NCBI GenBank assembly: GCA_964016885.1
Contig: OZ024751.1
Location: 50,654,001 to 50,718,000, forward strand
From: Eledone cirrhosa
Taxonomy: Eukaryota
Direction of reading: 5' to 3'
Length of the DNA stretch: 64,000 nucleotides
The notes below the pieces were generated by a model. That model searched no databases. It was given only the letters and a program-made list of their open reading frames with translations, and was not told the DNA's origin. Positions 2,180 to 26,270 of the stretch are shown here, in pieces; position 1 is the stretch's first letter, and each line of letters opens with the position of its first letter. Position numbers and translations under genes: made by a program.

Positions 2180-2226
<47 letters not shown>

Positions 2227-3343
2227 AGATCAAAAGATGGTTAAAGGAGTTCCATGTATTTTATTATGCGCATTTCAAAAACAAACATCATCATGCAATA
2301 ATATTTGTATTTTCATCAGATAAAACAGGAGAACATGATATGAAGGCTAAAAAACACTTGTGGATAGTGCAGTTTTAAATCAACATATGAAAAGTGGTTT
2401 TAGATTGATGTGTGATATTGGGAAAAATATTTTATTTAGAGAGGGGGGGGGTGGAAAGGATGAAAAAGGGAAGGAGATGAGATAGTTTTTATAACTGAGA
2501 GGAGATATATTGTTTTACATAGAGAGGTTGAAAACCGTTGGAAGATAATGTATAAATTAAAAATTAAAAAAAAAAAAAAAAAAATTTTGAAAATTAACGA
2601 AGGGAGGATATGTGCGAGGAAAAAATATTTTATTTAGGGAGGGTGGGTGGAAAGGATGAAAAAAGGGGGAGGAGATGAGAGTGAAGGTGGAGAGGGAGAG
2701 ATGGGTGATAGAGAGAAAGAGATAGTTTTTATAACTGAGAAAAAGATATATAGTTTTACATAGAGAGGTTGGGAACCGTTGGAAGATAATGTATAAATTA
2801 AAGGAATTTGAAAATTAACGACGGGAATTTATGTATGAAGATAGAGAGAAAAAATAATAATTGTGGATGAATATTCTAACGTCAAAAAAAGAAATGTATG
2901 TTGATAAGATATTGTGGCAATTTCAAAATTAACGAAGAGAAAAATTATTAAGGTTTGTGTGTAGAAGGATTTGAGAAAAATAATGTGGAGTTAAAGTTTG
3001 TATATTGAAGGAATTGATAATATATCCGAATAAAGAGTTAATGTGTATTAATAATGAGTTCGTTGATGGGGAGAAAAAAATAATAAATTAAGGATGAAAT
3101 TGAGATTAAAAAGATTTATGATAGAGAGAAAAAATAATAATGATTGCGGATGAATATTCTAACGTCAAAACAACAAATGTATATGTTATGATTTTACAAG
3201 GTGGAGATAGAATGAGGGTAATGAGTAAACAAGTATTATAGAGTGTATAATGCCCTTTAAAGTAAGGTAGATGGGTATATTTTAAAGAGGTGTATGTATA
3301 TGTGCCTTTGAGAAAAGATTCTAAATTGATAAAGAATTGAATA

Positions 3344-4915
3344 TTAACTGTATACTTTGTGAAAAGTTCTATGGAATTTATGCAGGCAGATAGAAAACAA
3401 ATCTGTACGTCTATTTATTATAGAATCTAGGTTAGAGATAATGGTAAATTTTTCATTTAGGCAGAGATTACAGATTTTAGATAGAGAGCTGTTCAAGTAT
3501 GAGGATGCAGAAGAAATCTTCTTCCAAAAGATGGTATATTTAATGTTTTTGTCTTTTAAGGACCATATGAGTTCTGAGAGAGCAGTGTTGGTTCTTTTAA
3601 GTTTGTATTTGAAAGATGAATGATGATTATAGAGACGAGCTTTAAAAGAGGTGGAAGTGGAGCCAAAATAGGTGAAGGAATTGGTGCTAGTTATAATTTT
3701 ACATTCATAAATTAAGTTTTTATCGAGACAATGGTTGTTGAGAGGACATTTATTTTTAATGCGGCAGTTGCAATTAGAGAGATTATTAATGAGTGACCTA
3801 GTGTTATCTATAGAAGGAATTGGATTGGAGAAGTTGTTTGCGATAGGAATAATAGGAATAATAGTTTCTTGATTTAGAGTTGGATTATGAACATTTAGCG
3901 AAGTTGTGTTTGACGTTGTATTTGGGTTTACAGAAGTTAGCCTAGGGTTTACAATGACGTCGGGAGTACTATTACTGTTATTATGAAATTCAATATTGGA
4001 AGGAAGAGATTTAGTATTTAGTATTTTATTGTTGTGTTTAGAGATGATGTTGGAAATATTGGAGGATGTAGAATACGAAAATTTGATGGTGTGTTTGTTA
4101 AATATTTTACTATAGATATGTGAGGGAGGGAAGCATTTATTTAAGGCACTAAAAAATAATTTAGGAATATTGTTATTAATAGAGATGGAGAAAGGAGCAT
4201 TATACCAGATTATGTTTTTGTATCTAGGTCTTTTATTAAAATTATTGGAATGGTCATGATTAATTATTCTACTGTAAGTTTTTCTAGAATTTGTTTCTTT
4301 ACTATATTTGATTTTATCTGGATAGCCGGCTTTAGAAAGTGCGTTATTATAGTAATTGGCGTTAGCATCAAAGATGTTTTTATTAGAAGATATGTTAGAT
4401 ATTCTTTTTCCAATATTATTAACTATAGCATTCTTGATATTGGTAGGATGGTTAGATTTAAAGTTAACATAATTTAGGTTCTCATTGTTTTTATGGTAAG
4501 GGTAATATAGGCCAGTGTCAAGATTAAGAGATACATCCAAGAAATTAGCTAGTTTGATACTATTATCAAATTCAATTTTTAGGTTATGTTGGTTAAAGAG
4601 ATTACGTATATTGTTCTTAATAATATTAAGGTTAACTATATTGCAATTTAGGATAGTAAAGAGTCCATCGTCACGATAAATTCCACCGCGGAGTTGAGGA
4701 ATTTTCCGACTCAAAGAGTTCAAAATGAAGATACCAATTAAATCAGTCAATTGGGATTAATCGGATGCTCCCATTGTGATGTCGAAGTTGTTAGAGGTAT
4801 CGGCTCTGGTCCAATATTCGTTGTTGAACTCTAGGATGGTTTTACGTGCGGTGAGGATGATGTGAAGTTCATCTGTGGTGATGTCAGAATATTTAAGTGC
4901 GAAAGATAGAGCATT
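3344..4915 (-). pseudogene. Penelope-like RT + GIY-YIG endonuclease, 5'-truncated, with premature stop
   Basis: YRDD motif, FLDVSL, CNCRIKNKCPLNNHC, IY...YFGSTSTSFKARLYNH, CNLC..CLH. Homology continues upstream of the called ORF through an in-frame TAA at 4759-4757 (NFDITMGASD*SQLTD) to about 4915 (NALSFALKYSDITTDELHII). Confidence 0.93.
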
Positions 4916-4918
4916 ATA

Positions 4919-5005
4919 TTATGTATACTCCAGTCCTACAAACTGTAGAGTGCTTCTTATCCGATATCTGCATTGCTTTATTGTACTACAATAAAACTCA
5001 CCTCC

Positions 5006-5010
<5 letters not shown>
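4919..5010 (+). mobile_element. Inverted PLE 3' tail fragment
   Basis: TGTATACTCCA...GAGTGCTTCTTAT resembles the family-B tail (ACTCCA...GAGTGCTTTTATAT). Ends ...TACAT into (AT)n. Confidence 0.6.
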
Positions 5011-5044
<34 letters not shown>

Positions 5045-5152
5045 AATATATAATATATATAATATATATATATATATATAATATATATATATATAATATA
5101 TATATATATAATATACAATATTAAATAAATGGAAAACTATATTTATAAAACC

Positions 5153-5229
5153 ATATTTATTTCATTATATATATTTCGGGGATATCATATTAACAATATG
5201 CTATGCCTTCATCAGACAAAATACAATAT
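5153..5229 (-). ncRNA. Type I hammerhead ribozyme
   Basis: Reverse complement of 12354-12430. Confidence 0.82.
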
Positions 5230-5586
5230 AAACAGTTTTATAGATAAATATATTCGACATACCGTAATAAACATCAACTTCATTTGAAGAGGTTTAGTCT
5301 AGCAGTGAAAATACAGAGAGAAAGAAAGAGAGAAAGAAAAGAGGGAAAAAACGAAAGAAAGAAAGACAAAACGAAGAAAAGGAAGAAAAAGAAGAAAAAG
5401 AAAAAGAAGAAATGCATGGAACAAAATAGAGAGATGGAAAAACAGATAAAGTGAAGAGCTTCATGTAAAGAGACAGAAAGATATATATATATAGAGAGAG
5501 AGAGGAAATAGAGATAGATACATATATATATATATAGAAAATTAGGTAGTGGGAGGTCATTTTGAGTAAGTGTATCAATGATACAT

Positions 5587-5629
<43 letters not shown>

Positions 5630-6703
5630 GCTCAAGTATTAATGTAAGGGAGATATATAGAGAGATATAGAGAGATATAGAGAGATATAGAGAGATATAG
5701 AGAGAGAAAAAAATTAAAAAATATCCAGACATATTCGAGGCGTAGAAAACCCTATGTTTTAATGTATTAGTATTTATAAAACTTACACTACACTGTAAAT
5801 ATCAGTATTCCTGAATGAAACAAGTATTCACAATGTGTGAAAATTGATTATCTTATGTTTAGTTTTAAAAATTCATATGTCTATGTGACAGCTACAAATC
5901 TCAATGTGAATCCAACTGATTCACTCCGCAAACTCTAAGTTATCGGAAAACATTCTCAATGTGGTATAAAAATTTGAGCGTATTATTATTCTTGCGATTA
6001 CTCTACAAGATTATCTATCAAGCAGAAATAGAGAGCAGATTTCAATATACTAATCGAAAATATATATTATATTATAAACATAATAATAAGTAAAAATATA
6101 GAATAGAAAACTAAAAAAATATTACGAAAGAATATTACATAATAAAAATATTGCATATTAAAAATACTACGTATTAAAAAATATTACGTATTAAAGATTT
6201 ACATATAAAAATTTACATATAAAAATATACATATAAAAATTTACATATAAAAATTTACATATAAAAATATATAAAAATATTTAAAAAAATAAATAAAATA
6301 AAAATAAAAATAAAAATGAAAATAAAAATAAACCACAAAAAAACAACCCTTCAAAGTTAATTGACAATATATTGCCACGTTCACTACAAGACAAAGCCAA
6401 AAATTATCTATCAAATCACATCTAGCAAAGAATATCGTAAAAAGATTATGATGTCCAATTATGTCTACATATGTTCCTATGTTTAATATAGAAGTTTATC
6501 TAGTGTAAGGTTAATTCAAAAAATTTGGAGCATCGGCTTTTAGGGTAGCTTAATTTTTCATGAGGAATGTTTAGATAAAAATAAAAATAAAAATAAATAA
6601 AATAAAATAAACAATAAAAAGAGTAAAACGAGGGAATCAAAGATTTAGGAATCAAAAGATTTATCGGCTAGTTCTCATATAAATATAAATCAAACTAAAT
6701 ATA

Positions 6704-8542
6704 CTACATTTTAAATTTAAATTTATATTTAAACGTTGAGTTTAATCTATGTTTGCAACAACTGAATAAATTTGTCCGTAGGTTAAGGGAGTTTTTAGAT
6801 TTTAGTATAAAGAATATCTCCTCTGCACAGAGGTCACATGTCTCAGAGGATGAATTAAAAGGAATCCCTCTTGAGACTATATTCCAAGCCGTCGAATATC
6901 TAACGTTATCTAGCTTAAGTTGCCAGAGTACCCCTGATAGTGCCGTTGAAGATTTTTTATTTGGATCTGTGAAAGAATTCTTGTGGTTATTATAGCGAAG
7001 TTTAAATTCCGTCGATGTGGAACCGACGTAGTTAAAAGAATTAGAGTCAGTATTAACATTACAATTGTATACTATATTTTTAACTAAGCAGTTGTTATTT
7101 AACGGACATTTAGATCTATCTCTACAGTTACATTTGTTAACTTGTATATTATTTATGCTATTATCAGTAGGTTTTAAGTTCCTATTATTTATTCTATTAA
7201 TATTTTGTGCTAAATTTTTGGTGGATGAGTAGGTTAATTTAATTGTATGCCTATTGAAGATTGAGGGATACCTATGTGTTCTAGGGAAGCGATTATCAAG
7301 AGCTTTGAAAAATAATTTAGCGATGTGGGTTTTAATGTTTAGTGAGAAAGGGGGGGCAAACCAAATTATGTTCCTAGTTCTATTTCTTTTTTGTCCTTTG
7401 GAATTATTGTAATGCTTTCTATTATAGTTGTTAATGTTGTTGCCGTAATTAAAAAAGTTGTTACTTTGTTTAGTTTGTCTATCATTATCTATGTATACAA
7501 TCTTATCAGCATACCCTGCCCTAGCTAGTGCATCATTATAGTATTGGGCCTTTTCGTCAAAAATCTTTCTATTCGACGAGATCCTAGAGATACGTTTTTG
7601 GACTGAGTTTACTATAGTGTTTTTGACAGATCTGGGGTGGTTAGAGTTAAAGTTGACATAGTTTAAGTTTTCATTCAACTTGTGAAAAGGATAGTGGAGA
7701 CATGTGTTGAGATTTAATGTTATATCTAGGAAATTGACTATTCTATGGTTGTTCTCAATTTCTATTTTAAGGTTAAAGTAATTAAAAAATTTTGTAATTT
7801 GTTTACATTTTCTATTTAGTTCAGGGTTATTATTATTAATAAGTAAAAGCATGTCATCCCTATATAAACCTCCGGTAGTACCAGGTATTTTCCTATGTAG
7901 CGAATTGATTAAAAATAAGCCCACAAGGTCAGTTACCTGAGCTGAGTCGGAAGATCCCATAGTTATGTCAAAATTGCTATCTCTATCTGCTCTAGTCCAT
8001 AATTTGTCATTAAATTCTATCAGAGTTTTCCTAGCCGATAATATAATATGCATTTCTTTGCTAGTTAGGTCCGTATGTTTGAATGCGTAATTTAGTGCCC
8101 TATTTAGTAGACTAGGGGTAATAGAAGAATAATAGTTAGCTATATCAAGTTGAATAAACCTATTATTATTGTCATATTTAATTTGCCTAAACCACTCAAC
8201 AACCTCTCCAGTTCCCTTCCACAAGCTCAGGTTAGATACACAATCCAAGTTCTTAATTTGTAGTATCACCCTGTCAAGAATGCTTTTACTTAATTTTCCC
8301 AGGTCCGATTTTGAAGGTGCGATCAATCTCACTGGCAGGTCATTTTCAAAATTGCTCTTGTGGTCCTTCATATTGATCTTCGGTTTCCTGGGCACGAAAG
8401 GTTGTGTTCTGTTCTCAATTTCCAACTCATGCATTATACAAGATGCTTCAACATTCATTTTCTCAAGTTCGGCCTTATCTGCTACCTTGTATTTTTTCCT
8501 CAGCTCTTTCAGTATGAGGCCATTATACATGTCTTTCCGCAC
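6704..8542 (-). pseudogene. 5'-truncated inverted copy of the PLE RT-GIY-YIG ORF
   Basis: 612 aa essentially identical to residues ~126-737 of the 8663-10876 product; lacks the N-terminus. Confidence 0.93.
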
Positions 8543-8546
8543 TCCA

Positions 8547-8620
8547 TCGAGTGCTTTTATATCAGTTATAAATATTTACTAGTTGTAACCCAACAATTTT
8601 AAATATAACTTTACATGTAT
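8547..8620 (+). repeat. 74-bp direct terminal repeat (pseudo-LTR remnant), second copy at 12489-12562
   Basis: TCGAGTGCTTTTATATCAGTTATAAATATTTACTAGTTGTAACCCAACAATTTTAAATATAACTTTACATGTAT occurs at both sites, and again at ~21417-21490. Confidence 0.92.
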
Positions 8621-8662
8621 CTTGCTCCAATACTGTTGAGCGCTTTATATTATAACTGAAAA

Positions 8663-10876
8663 ATGGAATTCTTTAAGATTACTTCCTCTCTAAAAGACAT
8701 ACCTCTACCTAGAAACAAAGACTTTGTAAAACAACTAATAGATAAATCTGACTCTTTTATAAGGAGAATCAGGTGGCGTGCATTCCACTTTGATAAATCT
8801 AATGCAGACGAAAATATCTCGGACTTAAACAAAGTTTTCAAATCTAAAAGAAATCCACCCCCTAACAAACTTTTATCTGACTTTGAAAACGATATAATTT
8901 CTATCATACAAGGGGTCAAATTTAAGAGAAACTTTAAAGGCCAGGAATATCTGAAAGGCATTAAGAATAACATTGAGAGCTTAGAGAAAACTGAGAAGAT
9001 CTTGGTGAAATCTGACAAGACCAACAACCTCTATGGAGTGCGGAAAGTGATGTATAATGGCCTCATACTGAAAGAGCTGAGGAAAAAATACAAGGTAGCA
9101 GATAAGGCCGAACTTGAGAAAATGAATGTTGAAGCATCTTGTATAATGCATGAGTTGGAAATTGAGAACAGAACACAACCTTTCGTGCCCAGGAAACCGA
9201 AGATCAATATGAAGGACCACAAGAGCAATTTTGAAAATGACCTGCCAGTGAGATTGATCGCACCTTCAAAATCGGACCTGGGAAAATTAAGTAAAAGCAT
9301 TCTTGACAGGGTGATACTGCAAATTAAGAACTTGGATTGTGTATCTAACCTGAGCTTGTGGAAGGGAACTGGAGAGGTTGTTGAGTGGTTTAGGCAAATT
9401 AAATATGACAATAATAATAGGTTTATTCAACTTGATATAGCTAACTATTATTCTTCTATTACCCCTAGTCTACTAAATAGGGCACTAAATTACGCATTCA
9501 AACATACGGACCTAACTAGCAAAGAAATGCATATTATATTATCGGCTAGGAAAACTCTGATAGAATTTAATGACAAATTATGGACTAGAGCAGATAGAGA
9601 TAGCAATTTTGACATAACTATGGGATCTTCCGACTCAGCTCAGGTAACTGACCTTGTGGGCTTATTTTTAATCAATTCGCTACATAGGAAAATACCTGGT
9701 ACTACCGGAGGTTTATATAGGGATGACATGCTTTTACTTATTAATAATAATAACCCTGAACTAAATAGAAAATGTAAACAAATTACAAAATTTTTTAATT
9801 ACTTTAACCTTAAAATAGAAATTGAGAACAACCATAGAATAGTCAATTTCCTAGATATAACATTAAATCTCAACACATGTCTCCACTATCCTTTTCACAA
9901 GTTGAATGAAAACTTAAACTATGTCAACTTTAACTCTAACCACCCCAGATCTGTCAAAAACACTATAGTAAACTCAGTCCAAAAACGTATCTCTAGGATC
10001 TCGTCGAATAGAAAGATTTTTGACGAAAAGGCCCAATACTATAATGATGCACTAGCTAGGGCAGGGTATGCTGATAAGATTGTATACATAGATAATGATA
10101 GACAAACTAAACAAAGTAACAACTTTTTTAATTACGGCAACAACATTAACAACTATAATAGAAAGCATTACAATAATTCCAAAGGACAAAAAAGAAATAG
10201 AACTAGGAACATAATTTGGTTTGCCCCCCCTTTCTCACTAAACATTAAAACCCACATCGCTAAATTATTTTTCAAAGCTCTTGATAATCGCTTCCCTAGA
10301 ACACATAGGTATCCCTCAATCTTCAATAGGCATACAATTAAATTAACCTACTCATCCACCAAAAATTTAGCACAAAATATTAATAGAATAAATAATAGGA
10401 ACTTAAAACCTACTGATAATAGCATAAATAATATACAAGTTAACAAATGTAACTGTAGAGATAGATCTAAATGTCCGTTAAATAACAACTGCTTAGTTAA
10501 AAATATAGTATACAATTGTAATGTTAATACTGACTCTAATTCTTTTAACTACGTCGGTTCCACATCGACGGAATTTAAACTTCGCTATAATAACCACAAG
10601 AATTCTTTCACAGATCCAAATAAAAAATCTTCAACGGCACTATCAGGGGTACTCTGGCAACTTAAGCTAGATAACGTTAGATATTCGACGGCTTGGAATA
10701 TAGTCTCAAGAGGGATTCCTTTTAATTCATCCTCTGAGACATGTGACCTCTGTGCAGAGGAGATATTCTTTATACTAAAATCTAAAAACTCCCTTAACCT
10801 ACGGACAAATTTATTCAGTTGTTGCAAACATAGATTAAACTCAACGTTTAAATATAAATTTAAATTTAAAATGTAG
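8663..10876 (+). CDS. Penelope-like retroelement polyprotein: reverse transcriptase + C-terminal GIY-YIG endonuclease (737 aa, apparently intact)
   Basis: N-terminal SLKDIP; KSDKTN; LDIANYYSSI; ITMGS; YRDD; FLDITL; linker CNCRDRSKCPLNNNC; IVY...YVGSTSTEFKLRYNNH; CDLCAEE; CKH. Confidence 0.95.
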   Translation: MEFFKITSSLKDIPLPRNKDFVKQLIDKSDSFIRRIRWRAFHFDKSNADENISDLNKVFKSKRNPPPNKLLSDFENDIISIIQGVKFKRNFKGQEYLKGIKNNIESLEKTEKILVKSDKTNNLYGVRKVMYNGLILKELRKKYKVADKAELEKMNVEASCIMHELEIENRTQPFVPRKPKINMKDHKSNFENDLPVRLIAPSKSDLGKLSKSILDRVILQIKNLDCVSNLSLWKGTGEVVEWFRQIKYDNNNRFIQLDIANYYSSITPSLLNRALNYAFKHTDLTSKEMHIILSARKTLIEFNDKLWTRADRDSNFDITMGSSDSAQVTDLVGLFLINSLHRKIPGTTGGLYRDDMLLLINNNNPELNRKCKQITKFFNYFNLKIEIENNHRIVNFLDITLNLNTCLHYPFHKLNENLNYVNFNSNHPRSVKNTIVNSVQKRISRISSNRKIFDEKAQYYNDALARAGYADKIVYIDNDRQTKQSNNFFNYGNNINNYNRKHYNNSKGQKRNRTRNIIWFAPPFSLNIKTHIAKLFFKALDNRFPRTHRYPSIFNRHTIKLTYSSTKNLAQNINRINNRNLKPTDNSINNIQVNKCNCRDRSKCPLNNNCLVKNIVYNCNVNTDSNSFNYVGSTSTEFKLRYNNHKNSFTDPNKKSSTALSGVLWQLKLDNVRYSTAWNIVSRGIPFNSSSETCDLCAEEIFFILKSKNSLNLRTNLFSCCKHRLNSTFKYKFKFKM

Positions 10877-11940
10877 TATATTTAGTTTGATTTATATTTA
10901 TATGAGAACTAGCCGATAAATCTTTTGATTCCTAAATCTTTGATTCCCTCGTTTTACTCTTTTTATTGTTTATTTTATTTTATTTATTTTTATTTTTATT
11001 TTTATCTAAACATTCCTCATGAAAAATTAAGCTACCCTAAAAGCCGATGCTCCAAATTTTTTGAATTAACCTTACACTAGATAAACTTCTATATTAAACA
11101 TAGGAACATATGTAGACATAATTGGACATCATAATCTTTTTACGATATTCTTTGCTAGATGTGATTTGATAGATAATTTTTGGCTTTGTCTTGTAGTGAA
11201 CGTGGCAATATATTGTCAATTAACTTTGAAGGGTTGTTTTTTTGTGGTTTATTTTTATTTTCATTTTTATTTTTATTTTTATTTTATTTATTTTTTTAAA
11301 TATTTTTATATATTTTTATATGTAAATTTTTATATGTAAATTTTTATATGTATATTTTTATATGTAAATTTTTATATGTAAATCTTTAATACGTAATATT
11401 TTTTAATACGTAGTATTTTTAATATGCAATATTTTTATTATGTAATATTCTTTCGTAATATTTTTTTAGTTTTCTATTCTATATTTTTACTTATTATTAT
11501 GTTTATAATATAATATATATTTTCGATTAGTATATTGAAATCTGCTCTCTATTTCTGCTTGATAGATAATCTTGTAGAGTAATCGCAAGAATAATAATAC
11601 GCTCAAATTTTTATACCACATTGAGAATGTTTTCCGATAACTTAGAGTTTGCGGAGTGAATCAGTTGGATTCACATTGAGATTTGTAGCTGTCACATAGA
11701 CATATGAATTTTTAAAACTAAACATAAGATAATCAATTTTCACACATTGTGAATACTTGTTTCATTCAGGAATACTGATATTTACAGTGTAGTGTAAGTT
11801 TTATAAATACTAATACATTAAAACATAGGGTTTTCTACGCCTCGAATATGTCTGGATATTTTTTAATTTTTTTCTCTCTCTATATCTCTCTATATCTCTC
11901 TATATCTCTCTATATATCTCCCTTACATTAATACTTGAGC

Positions 11941-12353: not shown

Positions 12354-12430
12354 ATATTGTATTTTGTCTGATGAAGGCATAGCATATTGTTAATATGATA
12401 TCCCCGAAATATATATAATGAAATAAATAT
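12354..12430 (+). ncRNA. Type I hammerhead ribozyme
   Basis: Stem I ATATTGTATTTTGT/ATGAAATAAATAT; CTGATGA 12368-12374; stem II with CATATT/AATATG; GAAA 12406-12409; palindromic ATATATAT; cleavage predicted after 12417. Confidence 0.82.
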
Positions 12431-12562
12431 GGTTTTATAAATATAGTTTTCCATTTATTTAATATTGTAAATATACTCCAAATATTTGTCGAGTGCTTTT
12501 ATATCAGTTATAAATATTTACTAGTTGTAACCCAACAATTTTAAATATAACTTTACATGTAT

Positions 12563-14678: not shown

Positions 14679-18002
<3,324 letters not shown>

Positions 18003-18133
18003 ATACATGGAAAGTTATATTTAAATTGTTGGGTTAACAACGAGTAAATATTTATAACTGATATAAAAGCACTCAACAAGTATTTGGAGTATATTTATGA
18101 TATTACATAAATGGAAACTATATTTATAAAACC

Positions 18134-18210
18134 ATATTTATTTCGTTATATATATTTCAGGGATATCATATTAACAATATGTTATGCCATCTTCAGACAA
18201 AATACAATAT
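18134..18210 (-). ncRNA. Type I hammerhead ribozyme (CUGAAGA variant)
   Basis: Reverse complement of 18353-18429. Confidence 0.8.
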
Positions 18211-18352
18211 AAACAGTCTTATAAATAAATAGATACGACATACCTTTCAATCACCTTGCATTTGTGAGGTTGATTTGGCAGTTGCCAAATCAACCTCACA
18301 AATGCAAGGTGATTGAAAGGTATGTCGTATCTATTTATTTATAAGACTGTTT

Positions 18353-18429
18353 ATATTGTATTTTGTCTGAAGATGGCATAACATATTGTTAATATGATAT
18401 CCCTGAAATATATATAACGAAATAAATAT
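18353..18429 (+). ncRNA. Type I hammerhead ribozyme (CUGAAGA variant)
   Basis: ATATTGTATTTTGT CTGAAGA ... GAAA TATATATA / ACGAAATAAATAT; G-U to G-C compatible change in stem I relative to family B. Confidence 0.8.
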
Positions 18430-18483
18430 GGTTTTATAAATATAGTTTCCATTTATGTAATATCATATATATATTATATATAT

Positions 18484-18553: not shown

Positions 18554-18638
18554 ATATATATTATATATATATATATTATATATATATATATTATTTATAT
18601 ACAATATTAAATAAATGGAAAACTATATTTATAAAACC

Positions 18639-18715
18639 ATATTTATTTCATTATATATATTTCGGGGATATCATATTAACAATATGCTATGCCTTCATCA
18701 GACAAAATACAATAT
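18639..18715 (-). ncRNA. Type I hammerhead ribozyme
   Basis: Same sequence as 5153-5229. Confidence 0.82.
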
Positions 18716-19080
18716 AAACAGTTTTATAGATAAATATATTCGACATACCGTAATAAACATCAACTTCATTTGAAGAGGTTCACTCTAGCAGTGAAAATAC
18801 AGAGAGAAAGAAAGAGAGAGAGAAAAGAGGGAAATAGGAAAGAAAGAAAGACAAAACGAAGAAAAGGAAGAAAAAGAAGAAAAAGAAAAAGAAGAAATGC
18901 ATGGGACAAAATAGAGAGATGGGAAAATAGATAAAGCGAAGAGCTTCATGTAAAGAGACAGAAAGAGATATATATATATATAGAGAGAGAGAGGAAGTAG
19001 AGATAGATACATATATAAATATAGATATAGAAAAATTAGGTAGTGGGAGGTCATTTTGAGTAAGTGTATCAATGATGCAT

Positions 19081-19119
<39 letters not shown>

Positions 19120-20248
19120 GCTCAAGTATTAATGTAAGGGAGATATATAGAGAGATATAGAGAGATATAGAGAGAGAAAAAATTTAAAAATAGCCAGACA
19201 TATTCGAGGCGTAGAAAACCCTACGTTTTAATGTATTAGTATTTATAAAACTTACACTATATTGTAAATATCAGTATTCCTGAATGAAACAAGTATTCAC
19301 AATGCGTGAAAATTCATTATCTTATGTTTAGTTTTTTAAAAAATTCATATGTCTATGTGAATCCAACTGATTCACTCCGCAAATTCAAAGTTACCGGAAA
19401 ACATTCTCAATGTGGTATAAAAATTTGAGCGTATTATTATTCTTGCGATTACTCTAAAAGATTATCTATCAAGCAGAAATAGAGAGCAGATTTCAATATA
19501 CTAATCGAAAATATATATTATATTATAAGCAGAGATAACAATAATAATGATAATAAGTAAAAATATATAAAAAAAATATAAAAATATAGAATAGAAAACT
19601 AAAAAAGAATATTACGAAAGAATATTACATAATAAAAATATTGCATATTAAAAATACTACGTATTAAAAATATTACGTATTAAAACTTTACATATAAAAA
19701 TATTAAAAATAAAAATTTACATATAAAAATATTAATAAAATAAAAAATATTATAGAATACTACAATACTAAAAGAATAAAAATAAAAATAAAAATAAAAA
19801 TAAAAATAAAAATAAAAATAAAAATAAAAATAAAAATAAAAATAAAAATAAAAATAAAAATAAAAATAAAAATAAACCACAAAGAACAACCCTTCAAAGT
19901 TAATTGACAATATATTGCCAAGTTCACTACAAGACAAAGCCAAAAATTATCTATCAAATCACATCTAGCAAGGAATATCGCAAAAAAAGATTATGATGTC
20001 CAATAATGTCTACATATGTTCCTATATTTAATATATAAGTTTATCAAGTGTAAGGTTAATTCAAAAAATTTGGAGCATCGGCTTTTAGGGTAGCTTAATT
20101 TTTCATGAGGAATGTTTAGATAAAAATAAAAATAAAAATAAATAAAATAAAATAAACAATAAAAAGAGTAAAAAGAGGGAATCAAAGATTTAGGAATCAA
20201 AAGATTTATCGGCTAGTTCTCATATAAATATAAATCAAACTAAATATA

Positions 20249-20496
20249 CTACATTTTAAATTTAAATTTATATTTAAACGTTGAGTTTAATCTATGTTTG
20301 CAACAACTGAATAAATTTGTCCGTAGGTTAAGGGAATTTTTAGATTTTAGTATAAAGAATATCTCCTCTGCGCAGAGGTCACATGTCTCAGAGGATGAAT
20401 TAAAAGGAATCCCTCTTGAGACTATATTCCAAGCCGTCGAATATCTAACGTTATCTAGCTTAAGTTGCCAGAGTACACCTGATAGTGCCGTTGAAG
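20249..20496 (-). pseudogene. C-terminal fragment of the PLE GIY-YIG region
   Basis: STALSGVLWQ...CDLCAEE...CKHRLN matches the end of the 737-aa ORF. The N-terminal part of the called 112-aa ORF is read-through from the inverted arm. Confidence 0.9.
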
Positions 20497-20877
20497 TATA
20501 TTGAAATCTGCTCTCTATTTCTGCTTGATAGATAATCTTGTAGAGTAATCGCAAGAATAATAATACGCTCAAATTTTTATACCACATTGAGAATGTTTTC
20601 CGGTAACTTTGAATTTGCGGAGTGAATCAGTTGGATTCACATAGACATATGAATTTTTTAAAAAACTAAACATAAGATAATGAATTTTCACGCATTGTGA
20701 ATACTTGTTTCATTCAGGAATACTGATATTTACAATATAGTGTAAGTTTTATAAATACTAATACATTAAAACATAGGGTTTTCTACGCCTCGAATATGTC
20801 TGGCTATTTTTAAATTTTTTCTCTCTCTATATCTCTCTATATCTCTCTATATATCTCCCTTACATTAATACTTGAGC

Positions 20878-20916
<39 letters not shown>

Positions 20917-21281
20917 ATGCATCATTGATACACTTACTCAAAATGACCTCCCACTACCTAATTTTTCTATATCTATATTTATATATGTATCTATCTCTAC
21001 TTCCTCTCTCTCTCTATATATATATATATCTCTTTCTGTCTCTTTACATGAAGCTCTTCGCTTTATCTATTTTCCCATCTCTCTATTTTGTCCCATGCAT
21101 TTCTTCTTTTTCTTTTTCTTCTTTTTCTTCCTTTTCTTCGTTTTGTCTTTCTTTCTTTCCTATTTCCCTCTTTTCTCTCTCTCTTTCTTTCTCTCTGTAT
21201 TTTCACTGCTAGAGTGAACCTCTTCAAATGAAGTTGATGTTTATTACGGTATGTCGAATATATTTATCTATAAAACTGTTT

Positions 21282-21358
21282 ATATTGTATTTTGTCTGAT
21301 GAAGGCATAGCATATTGTTAATATGATATCCCCGAAATATATATAATGAAATAAATAT
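21282..21358 (+). ncRNA. Type I hammerhead ribozyme
   Basis: Same sequence as 12354-12430. Confidence 0.82.
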
Positions 21359-21603
21359 GGTTTTATAAATATAGTTTTCCATTTATTTAATATTGTAAAT
21401 ATACTCCAAGTATTTGTCGAGTGCTTTTATATCAGTTATAAATATTTACTAGTTGTAACCCAACAATTTTAAATATAACTTTACATGTATTATTTATATA
21501 TATATTATATATATATATATTATAAATATATATATATTATATATATATATATTATATATATATATTATATATATATATATTATATATATATATATTATAT
21601 ATA

Positions 21604-22100: not shown

Positions 22101-25100
22101 TCAGGATTTGGGCACCATGGCCCATTCGAGAAGAGAATTACTGTTTGCGGAGACATATCCGGGTGTGGGTGGTTTGTCCGGGATTACTTGGAGGAATTTG
22201 TCCAAAGACTTCATGAATTTTGTGTGGTCAGTTTCTGTTTTGACGTGTCCTGGTGTGATGTTGAAGAGAGCAGGGCCGATTGAGGTGAAATAATTGTGCC
22301 GTATTGTTGTTATGAGTTGCGATTTAGATTTTTGAATGGGACGGATAGCACGGGGCCCAAGCCTTGGGTGTATCTTGAAGGCGATGCCAACATCATTTGG
22401 GCAGTGATGATGGAACATTTTCCACATCATGCAGATAATATAACGCTCACGGCGACGTTGGAGTGAGTAAAGTTTCAGGTTTTCTAGTCGACCCCAGTAG
22501 TCAAGGTCTGACATGCCATCTATCTTTTTCGTGATTGCCCTTTGAGGAGCTTCAAGTGTCATGATACTTTGTTTCGAGTGGGGAGACCACAGTGGACAAC
22601 AGTATTCAAGGTGTGGTCGGACAAAAGTAGAGAAGAGAAGGATAATGGTGTGGGAATCTCTCGACTGGAAGGTTCTGAGGATCCAGGAACACATTCTGCG
22701 GGCCATGTCAACTTTGCTGCTTATATGCGTGGCCCAGCTTATGTTGCTGTCCACGGTTACTCCCAAGTCTCTGATGTTGTTAGATGCCACGAGAGTTTCC
22801 CCGGAGGGAAGGGAGTACGGGAGTTTCAGAGCATCCTCTTTTCCAAAGTAGATCAGTTCGAATTTGTCTTCGTTCAGTAACATGTTGTTCTTTTCCGCCC
22901 ATTGGGTAACAGCCAGTAGGTCTGACTGAAGTTTTATCCGGTCATCCACGCCATTGATGACCTTTTGGAGCTTGGAATCATCAGCGAAAATTTTAATGTT
23001 GCTGTGTTTGATGATGTCAGTGATGTCATTAATATAGATGATGAAGAGAAGTGGGCCCAACACAGTGCCTTGTGGGACCCCACTACTGACTTTGGCTGGG
23101 CTGGATTTGACTCCTTCAACTACAACATGTTGGGTTCTATTTGACAGGAAGCTCTTGATCCACTGCAGCAGCTTTCCAGTGACACCAATATTGGACAGCT
23201 TTCTCAGTAGAATGTTATGATCAACCCTGTCAAAGGCCTTGCTGAAATCAAGGTAGATAACATCAGTGTTGGAACCCTCTCCCAAGGCTCTCAAAATGTC
23301 ATCAAAGTGATGCAGTAGCTGCGTCAGGCAATCCCTTCCATTACGGAATCCATGCTGGTTGGAGTTCAGCATATTGTTACTCTCAAGGAAGTGGGTCATT
23401 CGCGATCTCACCACTCTCTCAAATACCTTAATGATATGAGAGGTGAGTGAGATTAGACGGTAATTCACGGCAAGGGATTTGTTTCCCATTTTGAAAACTG
23501 GGACAACAGACTGGGATAGAAGGTTTTCTGGCACATATCCAGCATCCAGTGAGTTCCGCCACAGATTGGCAAGAGGAGATGCAAGTTGGTGTTGACACGC
23601 CTTCAAGACACAAGCAGGGAACCTATCGGGACCTACTGCTGAATTATGCTTGATTTCCTTTATTGCCGCCAAGACATCAGGGGCGCCAAACTTTATGTCC
23701 GATAAGGTGTAATGGGGAGTAACATCGCCGATACAGCCCAGATCGGCCATATCAGGATTGCTGAAAACAGAGCAGTATTGTTTCTGCAGTATCTCACCCA
23801 TGGTTTTAGCATTGTCTTGAAGAGTGCCATTTTCATCAATTAGAGGGCCAACAGTAGAGCCAGTGATTTTGTGTTTTTTTGCAAATGAAAAGAACACTTT
23901 GGGATTGAGTTTGATCTTCTCAATGGCCCAGGCCTCTTCAGCTCTTCTCTGATTGTTGATGAGGGACATTATGTTGTTTTGGAGGTTATGTTTTTTAATC
24001 TCTAGTGATGAAATGGCAGTCAAGTTGATGTGTTGCTGCTGACAGTATTTCAGCTTGTTGATTTTTTTGTTCGTTCTCTTAATTTTTCTGATGAGCGTTT
24101 TTCTATTTCTAGGGATTCTGCTCTTAGATTTGTTTATAGTTCTTAATGGGGTGTGTTTTGCACATATGTTTGTAACAGTGTCCACAAATGTCTGCCAGGA
24201 CTTTTTGATGTTAGTGGGTGTATGAGTGTGCGTGAAGGACCAGTCGACATGTGCAAGATCATGACTGATCGCTTCCCAGTTTGCATTGTGGAAATCCATA
24301 GCGTCAAACGGATGGACAGAAGAGATGACATTGGGTTTGTATATTGGATGGTGGAATCTCAGATCACAGAGAACCATGTCATGATCAGAGAGTAGAGTTT
24401 TCTCCACTGCAATATTGTGGATATTGTCAGTGTGATTGCTGAAAATTAAGTCTAGGACGTTTTTGTGGCACCTCGTTGGTTCGAGCACCAGTTGGGATAG
24501 GAAGAAATCATCCATGAAGTCAAGAAGCGATTCCACTGCTTCCCTGTCAGAGGTTGAGGCAGAAGAACCTGGTGGCAGGCTGTTTGTGGACCAGTCAACT
24601 CCGGGGAGGTTGAAGTCCCCCATCATTAAGATGTTGTCAGGGTGACACTCTTGGATGAAACACTTTATGCTGTTGAGGCATTCCTTGAAGCATGGTACAG
24701 GCGTTTGGGGTGGCCTATAGAGCCCAACTACTATTAGGTTGTTGGTTTGACTAAATACAGTGACTGCTTCACAGTATCCATTAGTGAATATGTTCATAGC
24801 TTCTGTTGAGAAAGAATTATGGACATAAATGGCAGTTCCGCCCTTTCTTCTGCCAGCGCGATCAGCACGGATGGCTTTGAAATTTTTCACTTTCACCTCG
24901 GCTTCCAAGTGGAGGTTACTGAGATGGGTTTCAGTGAGGACGAAGAAAGGGATGTGGTTTGGATGGACATCAATCCAGTCCTCCAGGAATTTGATCTTCC
25001 ATTTTTGAGTATTGGTGGAAGGGCTGATGCCTTGGGCGTTAAGCAAAAATGTAGAGGCGAGAGTGGATGGTTTTAATTGTTTTGGTGTGTTGTTAATTTG

Positions 25101-25121
25101 TTTGTTTGTTAATGGCAGCAA
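22101..25121 (-). CDS. LINE ORF2: apurinic-like endonuclease + reverse transcriptase (1006 aa)
   Basis: NAQG, LTETHL, YRPP, GDFNLP, LDLIF, SDHD (APE); LDFSKAFDRVDH, GVPQGTVLGPLLF, FADD (RT); RPHLEYC..WSP and RL..L.L.SL..RR typical of CR1-group C-termini. Confidence 0.95.
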   Translation of the reverse strand: MLPLTNKQINNTPKQLKPSTLASTFLLNAQGISPSTNTQKWKIKFLEDWIDVHPNHIPFFVLTETHLSNLHLEAEVKVKNFKAIRADRAGRRKGGTAIYVHNSFSTEAMNIFTNGYCEAVTVFSQTNNLIVVGLYRPPQTPVPCFKECLNSIKCFIQECHPDNILMMGDFNLPGVDWSTNSLPPGSSASTSDREAVESLLDFMDDFFLSQLVLEPTRCHKNVLDLIFSNHTDNIHNIAVEKTLLSDHDMVLCDLRFHHPIYKPNVISSVHPFDAMDFHNANWEAISHDLAHVDWSFTHTHTPTNIKKSWQTFVDTVTNICAKHTPLRTINKSKSRIPRNRKTLIRKIKRTNKKINKLKYCQQQHINLTAISSLEIKKHNLQNNIMSLINNQRRAEEAWAIEKIKLNPKVFFSFAKKHKITGSTVGPLIDENGTLQDNAKTMGEILQKQYCSVFSNPDMADLGCIGDVTPHYTLSDIKFGAPDVLAAIKEIKHNSAVGPDRFPACVLKACQHQLASPLANLWRNSLDAGYVPENLLSQSVVPVFKMGNKSLAVNYRLISLTSHIIKVFERVVRSRMTHFLESNNMLNSNQHGFRNGRDCLTQLLHHFDDILRALGEGSNTDVIYLDFSKAFDRVDHNILLRKLSNIGVTGKLLQWIKSFLSNRTQHVVVEGVKSSPAKVSSGVPQGTVLGPLLFIIYINDITDIIKHSNIKIFADDSKLQKVINGVDDRIKLQSDLLAVTQWAEKNNMLLNEDKFELIYFGKEDALKLPYSLPSGETLVASNNIRDLGVTVDSNISWATHISSKVDMARRMCSWILRTFQSRDSHTIILLFSTFVRPHLEYCCPLWSPHSKQSIMTLEAPQRAITKKIDGMSDLDYWGRLENLKLYSLQRRRERYIICMMWKMFHHHCPNDVGIAFKIHPRLGPRAIRPIQKSKSQLITTIRHNYFTSIGPALFNITPGHVKTETDHTKFMKSLDKFLQVIPDKPPTPGYVSANSNSLLEWAMVPKS

Positions 25122-26270
25122 TGGGAGTTTGTGCAGTGGGGTGATAGTGGAGGGTGGTGCTGGGTGATAGCTCGAATGTTTTTTTCCAGTTCTTTTGCCA
25201 GATTCATTATGGCTAAAAAAGAGGAAGAAGTTTCCTGTTTAGAAGACTGTTGGTGACTGTGGTAGTGGTTATTTTTATGTAGGTTATGGTTTTTGTTTTT
25301 GCTTTTATTTTTAATTTTATTTTCATTTGTCCGACGGGTCCCCGGGAGATGGGTAAAGGGACAATCCCGGTCTAAACACAATCTGTCTCGCAGGGAAAAG
25401 CGGCAGATTTGTGGATTCCCTGTTTGAGTTATTGGTGGTTGTGTTGGTGTTAAATTAGAGTATGTATTATGGTGGTGGCTGTTTGTGGGGATAGATCGTT
25501 TTGTCTAGGTAAATGGGTCAATTTGCAGCCACTATCCGTACATATTCTATAGCGTAGAGAGTAGCGGCAAATGATGGGTTTCGAGTGGGTGGGTATGTGG
25601 GTGTGTGTGTTGTGAGAGGTGTAGATGATGGTTTGAGTAGGATTTGACGACCTTTGTGGACTCTGGGAGGGAGAGTTCTTGTTCTGGTATTAGAAGGTAA
25701 ATTCCTTGAAATAGCAGTAGCCAAAGATGTTGTAGTAGTAGTAGTAGTAGTAGTAGCAGAGAAGATGTGGCAGTGTTGATGATTGGACTGCTGGGCCAGA
25801 GAAAGGATGTGGCGTTTCCTGCTGTGAGACAGCGGCTACTGGGAGGTCAATAGTTTCATTAGTAGATCGGCCATTGTTGATGAATCAAGGAGTGGTTCAC
25901 ACTGTTGTCGTTGTTGTTGTTGCTGTTGTTGATGTTGTTGTTGCTGTTGTTGTTGTAGCTGTTGTTGTTGTTGTTGCCGTTGTAGGCTGCTGTTGTTGTT
26001 GTTGCTACTGCTGGACAGCATTCGAAGAAAAAACACACCCGTAGTTTATCCAAATGTTTATTGATTAATTTAAAAGCAATTTCGATTTGCTTTAATTTAT
26101 TTTGAATCTGTTGTTCAGATCGAGTTTTCAAAAGTTGAACTGTACGTTTAGCAATGTCGTTCAGACATGAAGCATCTATGTCTTCTGTTTGGGTAAGGCA
26201 ATGCCATGTGTTTATTAGAATGTCGATTTCATTATCAGACAGTTCTGTTTGGATTTTTGCTGGTTAGCCA
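25109..26270 (-). pseudogene. Disrupted LINE ORF1 with two CCCH zinc-finger-like motifs
   Basis: CRYSLRYRICTDSGCKLTH (~25570-25513) and CRFSLRDRLCLDRDCPFTH (~25408-25350) lie in different frames, with a stop between them; (CAA)n tract at 25905-26005. Confidence 0.65.

Follow-up and report, generated by a model that had tools for sequence, protein, structure and literature searches.

Two described systems come closest to the element analysed here. Passages of Frangieh et al. (2024, PMC11167929) report that PAc, the Poseidon Penelope-like element (PLE) of Anolis carolinensis, cleaves both strands and extends them, that two internal start sites bound its tail, and that these sites are alike on both strands in vitro. 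RNA 3' of the start sites is required in the same account, which extends the needed RNA to +172 although synthesis starts at or before +118. For the Hydra clade, passages of Craig et al. (2021, PMC8557442) give a defining set of protein features (an RWK-type motif, DKT, CxCX5C, CxxC and CxH) and call the formation of PLE tails and inverted repeats an open question.

Here we analyse an element in a 64,000-nucleotide stretch of the Eledone cirrhosa genome (GCA_964016885.1, contig OZ024751.1, positions 50,654,001 to 50,718,000, forward strand; hereafter the window). Like the Hydra-clade elements in the passages of PMC8557442, it combines the protein hallmarks with (TA)n targeting, a candidate hammerhead, an inverted 5' copy and a tail that is often one-ended; its tail measures ~55–90 nt, compared with the 30–40 nt given there, and one of its families, B, reaches ~4 kb. 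With PAc, as the text of PMC11167929 presents it, the element shares a PLE reverse transcriptase (RT)/GIY-YIG protein, an upstream hammerhead, an AT-rich target and two internal starts bounding a tail, the last judged here from genomic ends.

A Hydra-clade element in the window

Four head-to-head insertions of two families, A and B, occupy the window, all of them within (TA)n. One contains a full copy whose single open reading frame (ORF; 8663–10876, plus strand, 737 aa) encodes a Hydra-clade RT with a C-terminal GIY-YIG-type endonuclease, facing an inverted, 5'-truncated partner arm (5111–8551, minus) with a short (S) end at ~5111. Because its inverted arms (5660–8551 and 9029–11920) are 100% identical across 2,892 nt, this insertion must be very young. 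A second insertion spans 18596–21490 (S end ~18596, minus; long (L) end ~21490, plus), a third 17995–18467 (L end minus; S end ~18467, plus), and a family A insertion lies at 2220–5009 (S end ~2220, minus; L end ~5009 on a short plus arm). Another family-B-type short end, with its own hammerhead variant, is present at 443–601. Elsewhere the window holds a 1,045-aa open frame (22101–25238, minus) from an APE-type non-LTR retrotransposon, CR1/L2-like by eye and with an ORF1-like region upstream, and a 26-kb array (31100–57700) of 19- and 25-nt units with strong C and A skew that adjoins an assembly gap.

The element is a Hydra-clade PLE. Its protein has RWR at 37, DKT at 118 (the DKG changed), YRDD at 352 and a CxCX5C linker at 596, with CxxC at 694 and CxH at 721 in the endonuclease; by eye, CCHH is absent and a GIY-YIG-like segment is present, which a strict regular expression missed. 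The ORF gave no Pfam match. Among 143 homologues at E ≤ 1e-20, the 120 listed share 30–42% identity, and two are named from Argonauta. Placement in the clade rests on the protein hallmarks, the protein tree being composed of relatives without named Hydra references. Two further Hydra-clade traits are seen, (TA)n insertion and, as a candidate recognized by sequence, a hammerhead core near the 3' end (12368). This core belongs to a type I hammerhead-like motif drawn by eye (12360–12425, plus; core 12368–12374, GAAA 12406–12409, palindromic stem III), and a candidate core stands 48–67 nt ahead of hairpin 1, described below, in 23 of 25 loci. Rfam has no match to the motif; across window positions 1–25000 at E ≤ 1 it returned 20 matches, all miRNA models on TA-rich repeats below gathering and none at the hairpins. 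The clade's tendency to sizes below 3 kb does not extend to family B, which is ~4.0 kb long because its 3' region takes up 1.6 kb.

A bulged hairpin occurs twice in the leader

The motif is a bulged hairpin, NCUC-stem-UY-GAGN-RCU, found twice in the leader. In the full copy, hairpin 2 (8624–8641, plus) consists of a 4-bp lower stem, a UU bulge and an upper stem, and stands 3' of the L site (8614–8620, plus), the place in the leader where tailed copies stop. With its 3' triplet it covers 8624–8644; its lower-stem pair probabilities are 0.66–0.98, and it shows covariation. Only the 3' arm of hairpin 1 (8547–8555, plus) remains in this leader because the inversion junction cuts the hairpin; 8547–8620 is identical to 12489–12562. 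Intact, hairpin 1 lies within the plus-arm tail (12475–12494, or 12475–12497 with its 3' triplet), which runs for ~90 nt from S to L (12470–12562, plus) with (TA)n at its end; the S site is at 12466–12470 (plus). The junction itself (8541–8555) joins an ORF-derived antisense end to the cut hairpin 1 in a near-perfect palindrome that resembles hairpin 1. P3, the tail's inner hairpin (8582–8594, plus), is seen in families of the E. cirrhosa genome.

Hairpin 1 recurs in the second insertion (21403–21422, plus), the third (18071–18090, minus) and the family A insertion (4927–4951). A sequence-only reading of this DNA had placed motifs at or near all of these sites, and its observation that the closing pair covaries is borne out: A-U closes hairpin 1, and G-C closes hairpin 2. 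The GCUUU that it had attached to the signal proved to be a family trait, the clade-wide 3' triplet being ACU in 63 of 74 hairpins.

A pattern search of the 3.0-Gb genome gave 37,267 matches to hairpin 1 against 46 for the reversed control, and 1,107 against 23 for the tandem hairpin 1–hairpin 2 pattern; these numbers are matches rather than loci, and overlapping matches may count twice. A chance origin of the motif was rejected on this comparison. When 30 tandem loci were inspected, 28 led into a Hydra-type ORF start, one had the motif with no start found and one was unrelated. Two family anchors are also abundant (~41,600 and ~13,700 matches). At one place (G000:C1:284285755-284285841) the hairpin unit itself is repeated in tandem with a period of ~41 nt. 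Low-copy Hydra families of the same genome (L384–L399) have a G-C closing pair and an ACU triplet, as is typical of the clade and unlike the abundant families.

Conservation outside Eledone was assessed in relatives chosen by protein alone: 40 proteins were aligned, and 78 metagenome loci, 32–38% identical to the query, were collected, 60 of which contained the N-terminus and 49 of which were left once near-duplicates had been removed. Two hairpins scored above the shuffled maximum in 32 of these 49 (sequence-only score at least 12; best of 100 shuffles, 11.5). Most of the other 17 were cut short upstream, started in flanking DNA or had variant stems, such as, by eye, U-A at pair 1 (L120, L124 and L148) or at pair 2 (L096). 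The two copies begin 54–83 nt apart, and the loop between the arms ranges from 5 to 18 nt. The bulge is UU in 51 of 74 hairpins, UC in 13 and UA in 10.

Base pairs were counted by anchoring on the arms, since MAFFT, given 64 hairpins, put the 5' arms in the wrong place. Lower-stem pairs 2–4 are almost invariant and for that reason carry little covariation. Of 74 hairpins, 73 have a canonical pair 5 (C-G 49, U-A 22, U-G 2), compared with 58 after shuffling and 9 after sliding. Pair 6 is canonical in 44 of 68 (27 shuffled; U-U in 15) and pair 7 in 33 of 40 (16 shuffled), and at pairs 8–9 the signal is weak or absent. On the protein tree (202 columns, 14 open branches; frameshifted rows L127 and L129 excluded from step counts), pair 5 of hairpin 1 takes six parsimony steps on each side and six jointly, so every change is double. 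In a 15-row subset of equal length, pairing reached 91% and only the covariation score stood out (5 of 500 shuffles), the remaining measures being unremarkable (27, 68, 57 and 228 of 500). Folding energy shows no preference for the sense strand in the hairpins, the sense form being better in 18 of 64 and the antisense form in 39.

The motif also appears among the published Hydra consensus sequences of PMC8557442, twice in tandem in Ajap and once each in Amil and in a second Ajap 3' end; the sequences with the motif come from sea cucumber and coral, and a Caligus sequence has a variant stem by eye. In other PLE clades, 28 of 30 GIY-YIG loci, mostly Neptune-like by eye, lacked it within ±1.5 kb, and the two remaining matches appear to stem from neighbouring Hydra copies. 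Neptune-like PLE endonucleases with a CxxC linker and, by eye, a CCHH pattern are abundant (L355–L383), with the Hydra motif absent within 1.5 kb of them. Viral contigs yielded 15 pattern matches with no relative among them, and a tandem search with the canonical motif gave 15 matches against 17 in the control, a comparison that is uninformative as a count. Taken together, the hairpin is almost certainly a real, structured element.

Copies end at a fixed distance before either hairpin

Copy ends were sampled with an anchor lying upstream of the S and L ends alike; the first 98 family-B-type ends and the first 30 family-A ends along contig 1 were used. Of these 128 ends, 73 lie immediately ahead of hairpin 1 (S) and another 50 immediately ahead of hairpin 2 (L); three read through into the ORF, two belong to unmatched subfamilies with a tail, and none lies directly past hairpin 2. 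In family B, S ends outnumber L ends by 61 to 36. The leader is AT-rich throughout, yet copies end at two places only. Similarly, in other hosts, where removing 11 contig ends and three cross-family matches from 27 alignment stops left 13 true ends, 11 of the 13 fall 0–8 nt before a hairpin (eight S, three L).

The gap from end to hairpin is the same at the S and L sites. Because TA bases common to target and element blur the exact end base, a single end can fit several gaps: for the 140 resolved among 162 ends, a gap of 6 nt fits 102, 7 nt fits 99, 5 nt fits 84, 4 nt fits 71 and 8 nt fits 43, and minor registers lie ~2 nt off the main one. The gap of 4–5 nt proposed in the sequence-only reading is thus the smallest value, obtained once common TA bases are credited to the element. 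Clade-wide, UA is enriched at −8 to −5 and begins most commonly at −6 (12 of 30 and 16 of 32 cases). This UA is all that is enriched of the UGUA for which that reading proposed pairing to the nicked target. We rejected UGUA-specific pairing; UGUA is a family trait, and the minus-strand copy carries CAUA ahead of the gap.

Between hairpin 2 and the AUG the spacing ranges from ~31 to 76 nt, whereas the distance to the ends is fixed. RT copies towards the 5' end of the RNA, and each hairpin is therefore outside its own copied region and works as a ruler. Hairpin 2 is never found in an L-ended copy and must therefore act on a longer template. We consider it very probable, from the genomic ends and hairpin sequences, that the hairpin sets the start sites, in keeping with the earlier proposal of a duplicated hairpin fixing RT initiation just 5' of itself; covariation, the fixed end positions across families here and in unrelated hosts, and the two starts of PAc in the passages of PMC11167929 all speak for it.

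A long-range helix joins the strands beyond the two hairpins

The 10–14 nt past hairpin 1 pair with the 10–14 nt past hairpin 2 to form a helix, P2, whose strands in the full copy are P2a (8562–8571, plus), past hairpin 1, and P2b (8650–8659, plus), between hairpin 2 and the AUG. P2 starts 0–8 nt past each ACU. Its sequence differs among families and its pairing is retained: in each of families A, B and C of the E. cirrhosa genome the best partner comes from the same family, although L059 and L042 gave a better duplex with a close relative. For 32 outside loci, cognate duplexes average −11.65 kcal/mol against −6.08 kcal/mol for non-cognate ones, and the cognate duplex is better than the non-cognate mean in all 32; it beats 95% of non-cognate duplexes in 16 and 95% of shuffles in 21. 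In a natural junction that is intact (L046), pair probabilities are 0.86–1.0 for nine of ten pairs. The sense strand has the better duplex energy in just 10 of 32 loci.

P2 is able to form solely in RNA that spans the pLTR–ORF junction. Because it is antiparallel, the two hairpins would sit at its opposite ends, and a pseudo-two-fold axis would relate them. In the tail of family B (12504–12556), P2a could by eye pair instead with a stretch immediately ahead of the long end, perhaps as another fold for RNA that lacks hairpin 2; it is not evident in families A and C.

Head-to-head copies mostly combine one short and one long end

All four pairs in the window join one S end to one L end. We selected 45 head-to-head pairs of less than 6 kb by position only, and 41 of them are S+L (p ~5e-9 against 0.5); the other four comprise two L+L, one S+S, whose plus end has a mutated hairpin 1, and one S with a read-through end. 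From the S side, 26 of 60 ends have a head-to-head tailed partner, compared with two in a tail-to-tail control, and for 34 of the 60 no inverted partner was detected. The arms share a donor, the closest copy being the arm's own partner in 15 of 15 cases in family B and 18 of 27 in family A.

Arm lengths could be resolved in 26 of 44 pairs, natural reference copies having broken the chain in the others. In 17 the two arms are about equally long, and several of these centre on short palindromes; seven have a longer L arm and two a longer S arm. A longer S arm is also seen in three partly resolved pairs (L310, L318 and L321). Two primings are the simplest reading of these pairs, because fold-back of an L-primed cDNA cannot lengthen the S arm and fold-back of an S-primed cDNA cannot give the tail. 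Junctions show overlaps of 1–6 nt in 11 cases and of 15–30 nt in four, and inserted bases in 11. Many short insertions, seen among family A pairs (L273, L277, L290, L298 and L306), break at a junction hotspot, a short self-complementary site that lies ~120 nt upstream of the anchor. For tail-only insertions there was no enrichment near TA runs (135 minus-strand matches near versus 247 far, in overlapping sets).

Discussion

We propose that the twin hairpins each position one RT/endonuclease and that both nicked (TA)n strands prime in a single insertion, a reading that genomic ends and head-to-head pairs make likely; that both sites are used in one event seems similarly probable. With somewhat more for it than against it, we further favour a symmetric double target-primed reverse transcription in which one pseudo-two-fold RNA, through its twin hairpins, would load a protein dimer, both strands would prime at fixed internal sites and the cDNAs would complete each other. 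The least certain part is the participation of a single RNA with a protein dimer, as opposed to two ribonucleoprotein particles (RNPs) of one locus, and we lean only slightly towards the former. In this scheme the hairpins would act in junction RNA, in the order hammerhead, hairpin 1, P2a, linker, hairpin 2, P2b and AUG, with antiparallel P2 serving as a pseudo-two-fold scaffold for two protein subunits. The subunits would bind the two hairpins and nick opposite (TA)n strands, and the nicked target ends would pair with UA near −6 before extension. The two cDNAs could then anneal or be joined and copy each other, yielding a head-to-head insertion that is tailed at one side alone, and completion of just one cDNA would leave a solo S- or L-ended copy. 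Sharing of one RNA might favour enrichment of tail-only insertions, and its absence counts against this explanation, as do the strand energies, the nearly invariant lower stem, the S ends with no partner detected and the few L+L and S+S pairs. The same holds for the PAc start sites of PMC11167929, which do not differ between strands in vitro, and for the lack, by eye, of a duplicated motif in its template.

The main rival is the DNA-level trimming model of PMC8557442, whose passages ascribe the tail to endonuclease resolution: the element would be copied past both sites, and the GIY-YIG endonuclease would use the hairpins in DNA to trim 6–7 nt before each motif, once per side. The Drosophila virilis endonuclease needed the tail for cleavage, according to a passage of PMC11167929, and the strand energies are compatible with an antisense or DNA form. 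We nevertheless regard trimming as unlikely, given that in another clade RT starts on RNA map exactly to the tail bounds (passages of PMC11167929), that the variable loop and stem covariation fit a duplex recognition site poorly, and that the sampled ends never fall directly past hairpin 2. Alternatively, a cDNA primed once, at L, could fold back and be copied again, with synthesis stopping or jumping at S; hairpin 2 would then act to start synthesis and hairpin 1 to stop it. The common donor and the near-equal arms of many pairs, several on palindromes, are what such copying would give, but a copy cannot outrun its template, and the longer S arms, the excess of often solo S ends in family B and the equal gap at both sites make this improbable.

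It is also conceivable that the leader is structured for translating an uncapped or circular RNA, or for RNA processing with the hammerhead, and that nearby UA-rich sequence alone sets the ends. P2b stops just short of the AUG, the hammerhead core keeps its place ahead of hairpin 1, and UA is enriched where copies end; against this stand the variable spacing of hairpin 2 from the AUG beside a fixed spacing from the ends, and the restriction of ends to two places in a leader that is AT-rich throughout. We consider it improbable that these functions account for the ends, although a second role of the leader structure in translation is possible. Finally, the hairpins could be start signals working singly, with two separate RNPs of one locus priming the two strands and P2 merely folding the leader. 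Solo S and L ends are common, and arm identity cannot separate one RNA from two transcripts of one locus, but independent particles should produce S+S and L+L combinations in about half of the pairs, whereas three of 45 were seen, which leaves this explanation very doubtful.

The analysis yields a compact cis signal that is clade-wide and makes exact predictions for mutants, and a genomic rule, S+L, that points to coupled priming of both strands; the starts in the passages of PMC11167929 had no defined determinant. A signal outside the copied region would allow cargo to be placed upstream, a point of relevance to RNA-templated insertion tools, and the system offers a small model for template selection in the sister group of telomerase. 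Symmetric double priming, if true, would account in a single step for the PLE tail, the inverted repeats and the synthesis of the second strand, and other PLE clades may share it while using different signals.

The sequence-only reading, which knew of no description of the motif, missed the long-range helix, the S+L rule and the earlier work on Poseidon. We likewise found no description of the motif, the P2 helix or the pairing rule in the open full text, and part of the supplements, of the PLE literature, in which PMC11167929 and PMC8557442 were the only relevant papers; the passages of PMC8557442 contain no occurrence of 'hairpin', and the portion seen of a retrozyme preprint (10.64898/2026.07.22.740005) does not describe the motif. 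RNA folds in Figs S1B and S2C of PMC11167929 may bear on novelty. Internal initiation at two sites is already known from that work; the twin hairpin, P2 as a scaffold and the S+L rule appear new. Passages of PMC11167929 model a PAc dimer and describe starts in a stem-loop of AC-rich sequence inside the ORF, unlike the present starts, which fall in AU-rich sequence 5' of a hairpin and upstream of the AUG; they name no duplicated motif, long-range helix or S+L pairing. By eye, the template printed there lacks a duplicated Hydra motif and has a drawable hairpin at ~+119 to +150, just 3' of the +111–118 starts.

The telomerase comparison made in the sequence-only reading has some basis, in that the RTs are sisters and in both systems an RNA structure defines the copied part. 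As an analogy it is weak. Telomerase's template boundary element, situated 5' of the template, brings copying to a halt (passages of PMC5855555), whereas the Hydra hairpin lies 3' of the copied region and of the start, and we rejected a telomerase-type boundary on that ground. In the part of the literature seen, only the Tetrahymena template recognition element is on a comparable side, a likeness of position, with none seen in sequence or fold.

Two further retrotransposons are instructive. In L1 twin priming, both target strands prime and an inversion results, the second primer acting at a random internal site so that the segments do not overlap. In the Hydra element, by contrast, each start has a fixed site, and the two arms, copied from the same 3' region, form an inverted repeat. 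R2 resembles our proposal in that two RNA motifs send two subunits to opposite target strands; its motifs, however, are dissimilar and lie at opposite ends of the RNA, and only one subunit copies RNA, from the 3' end. The Hydra element instead has two like motifs 54–83 nt apart, 3' of internal starts, and both subunits would prime on RNA. As a working analogue, the two-motif, two-subunit scheme of R2 thus appears nearer than telomerase.
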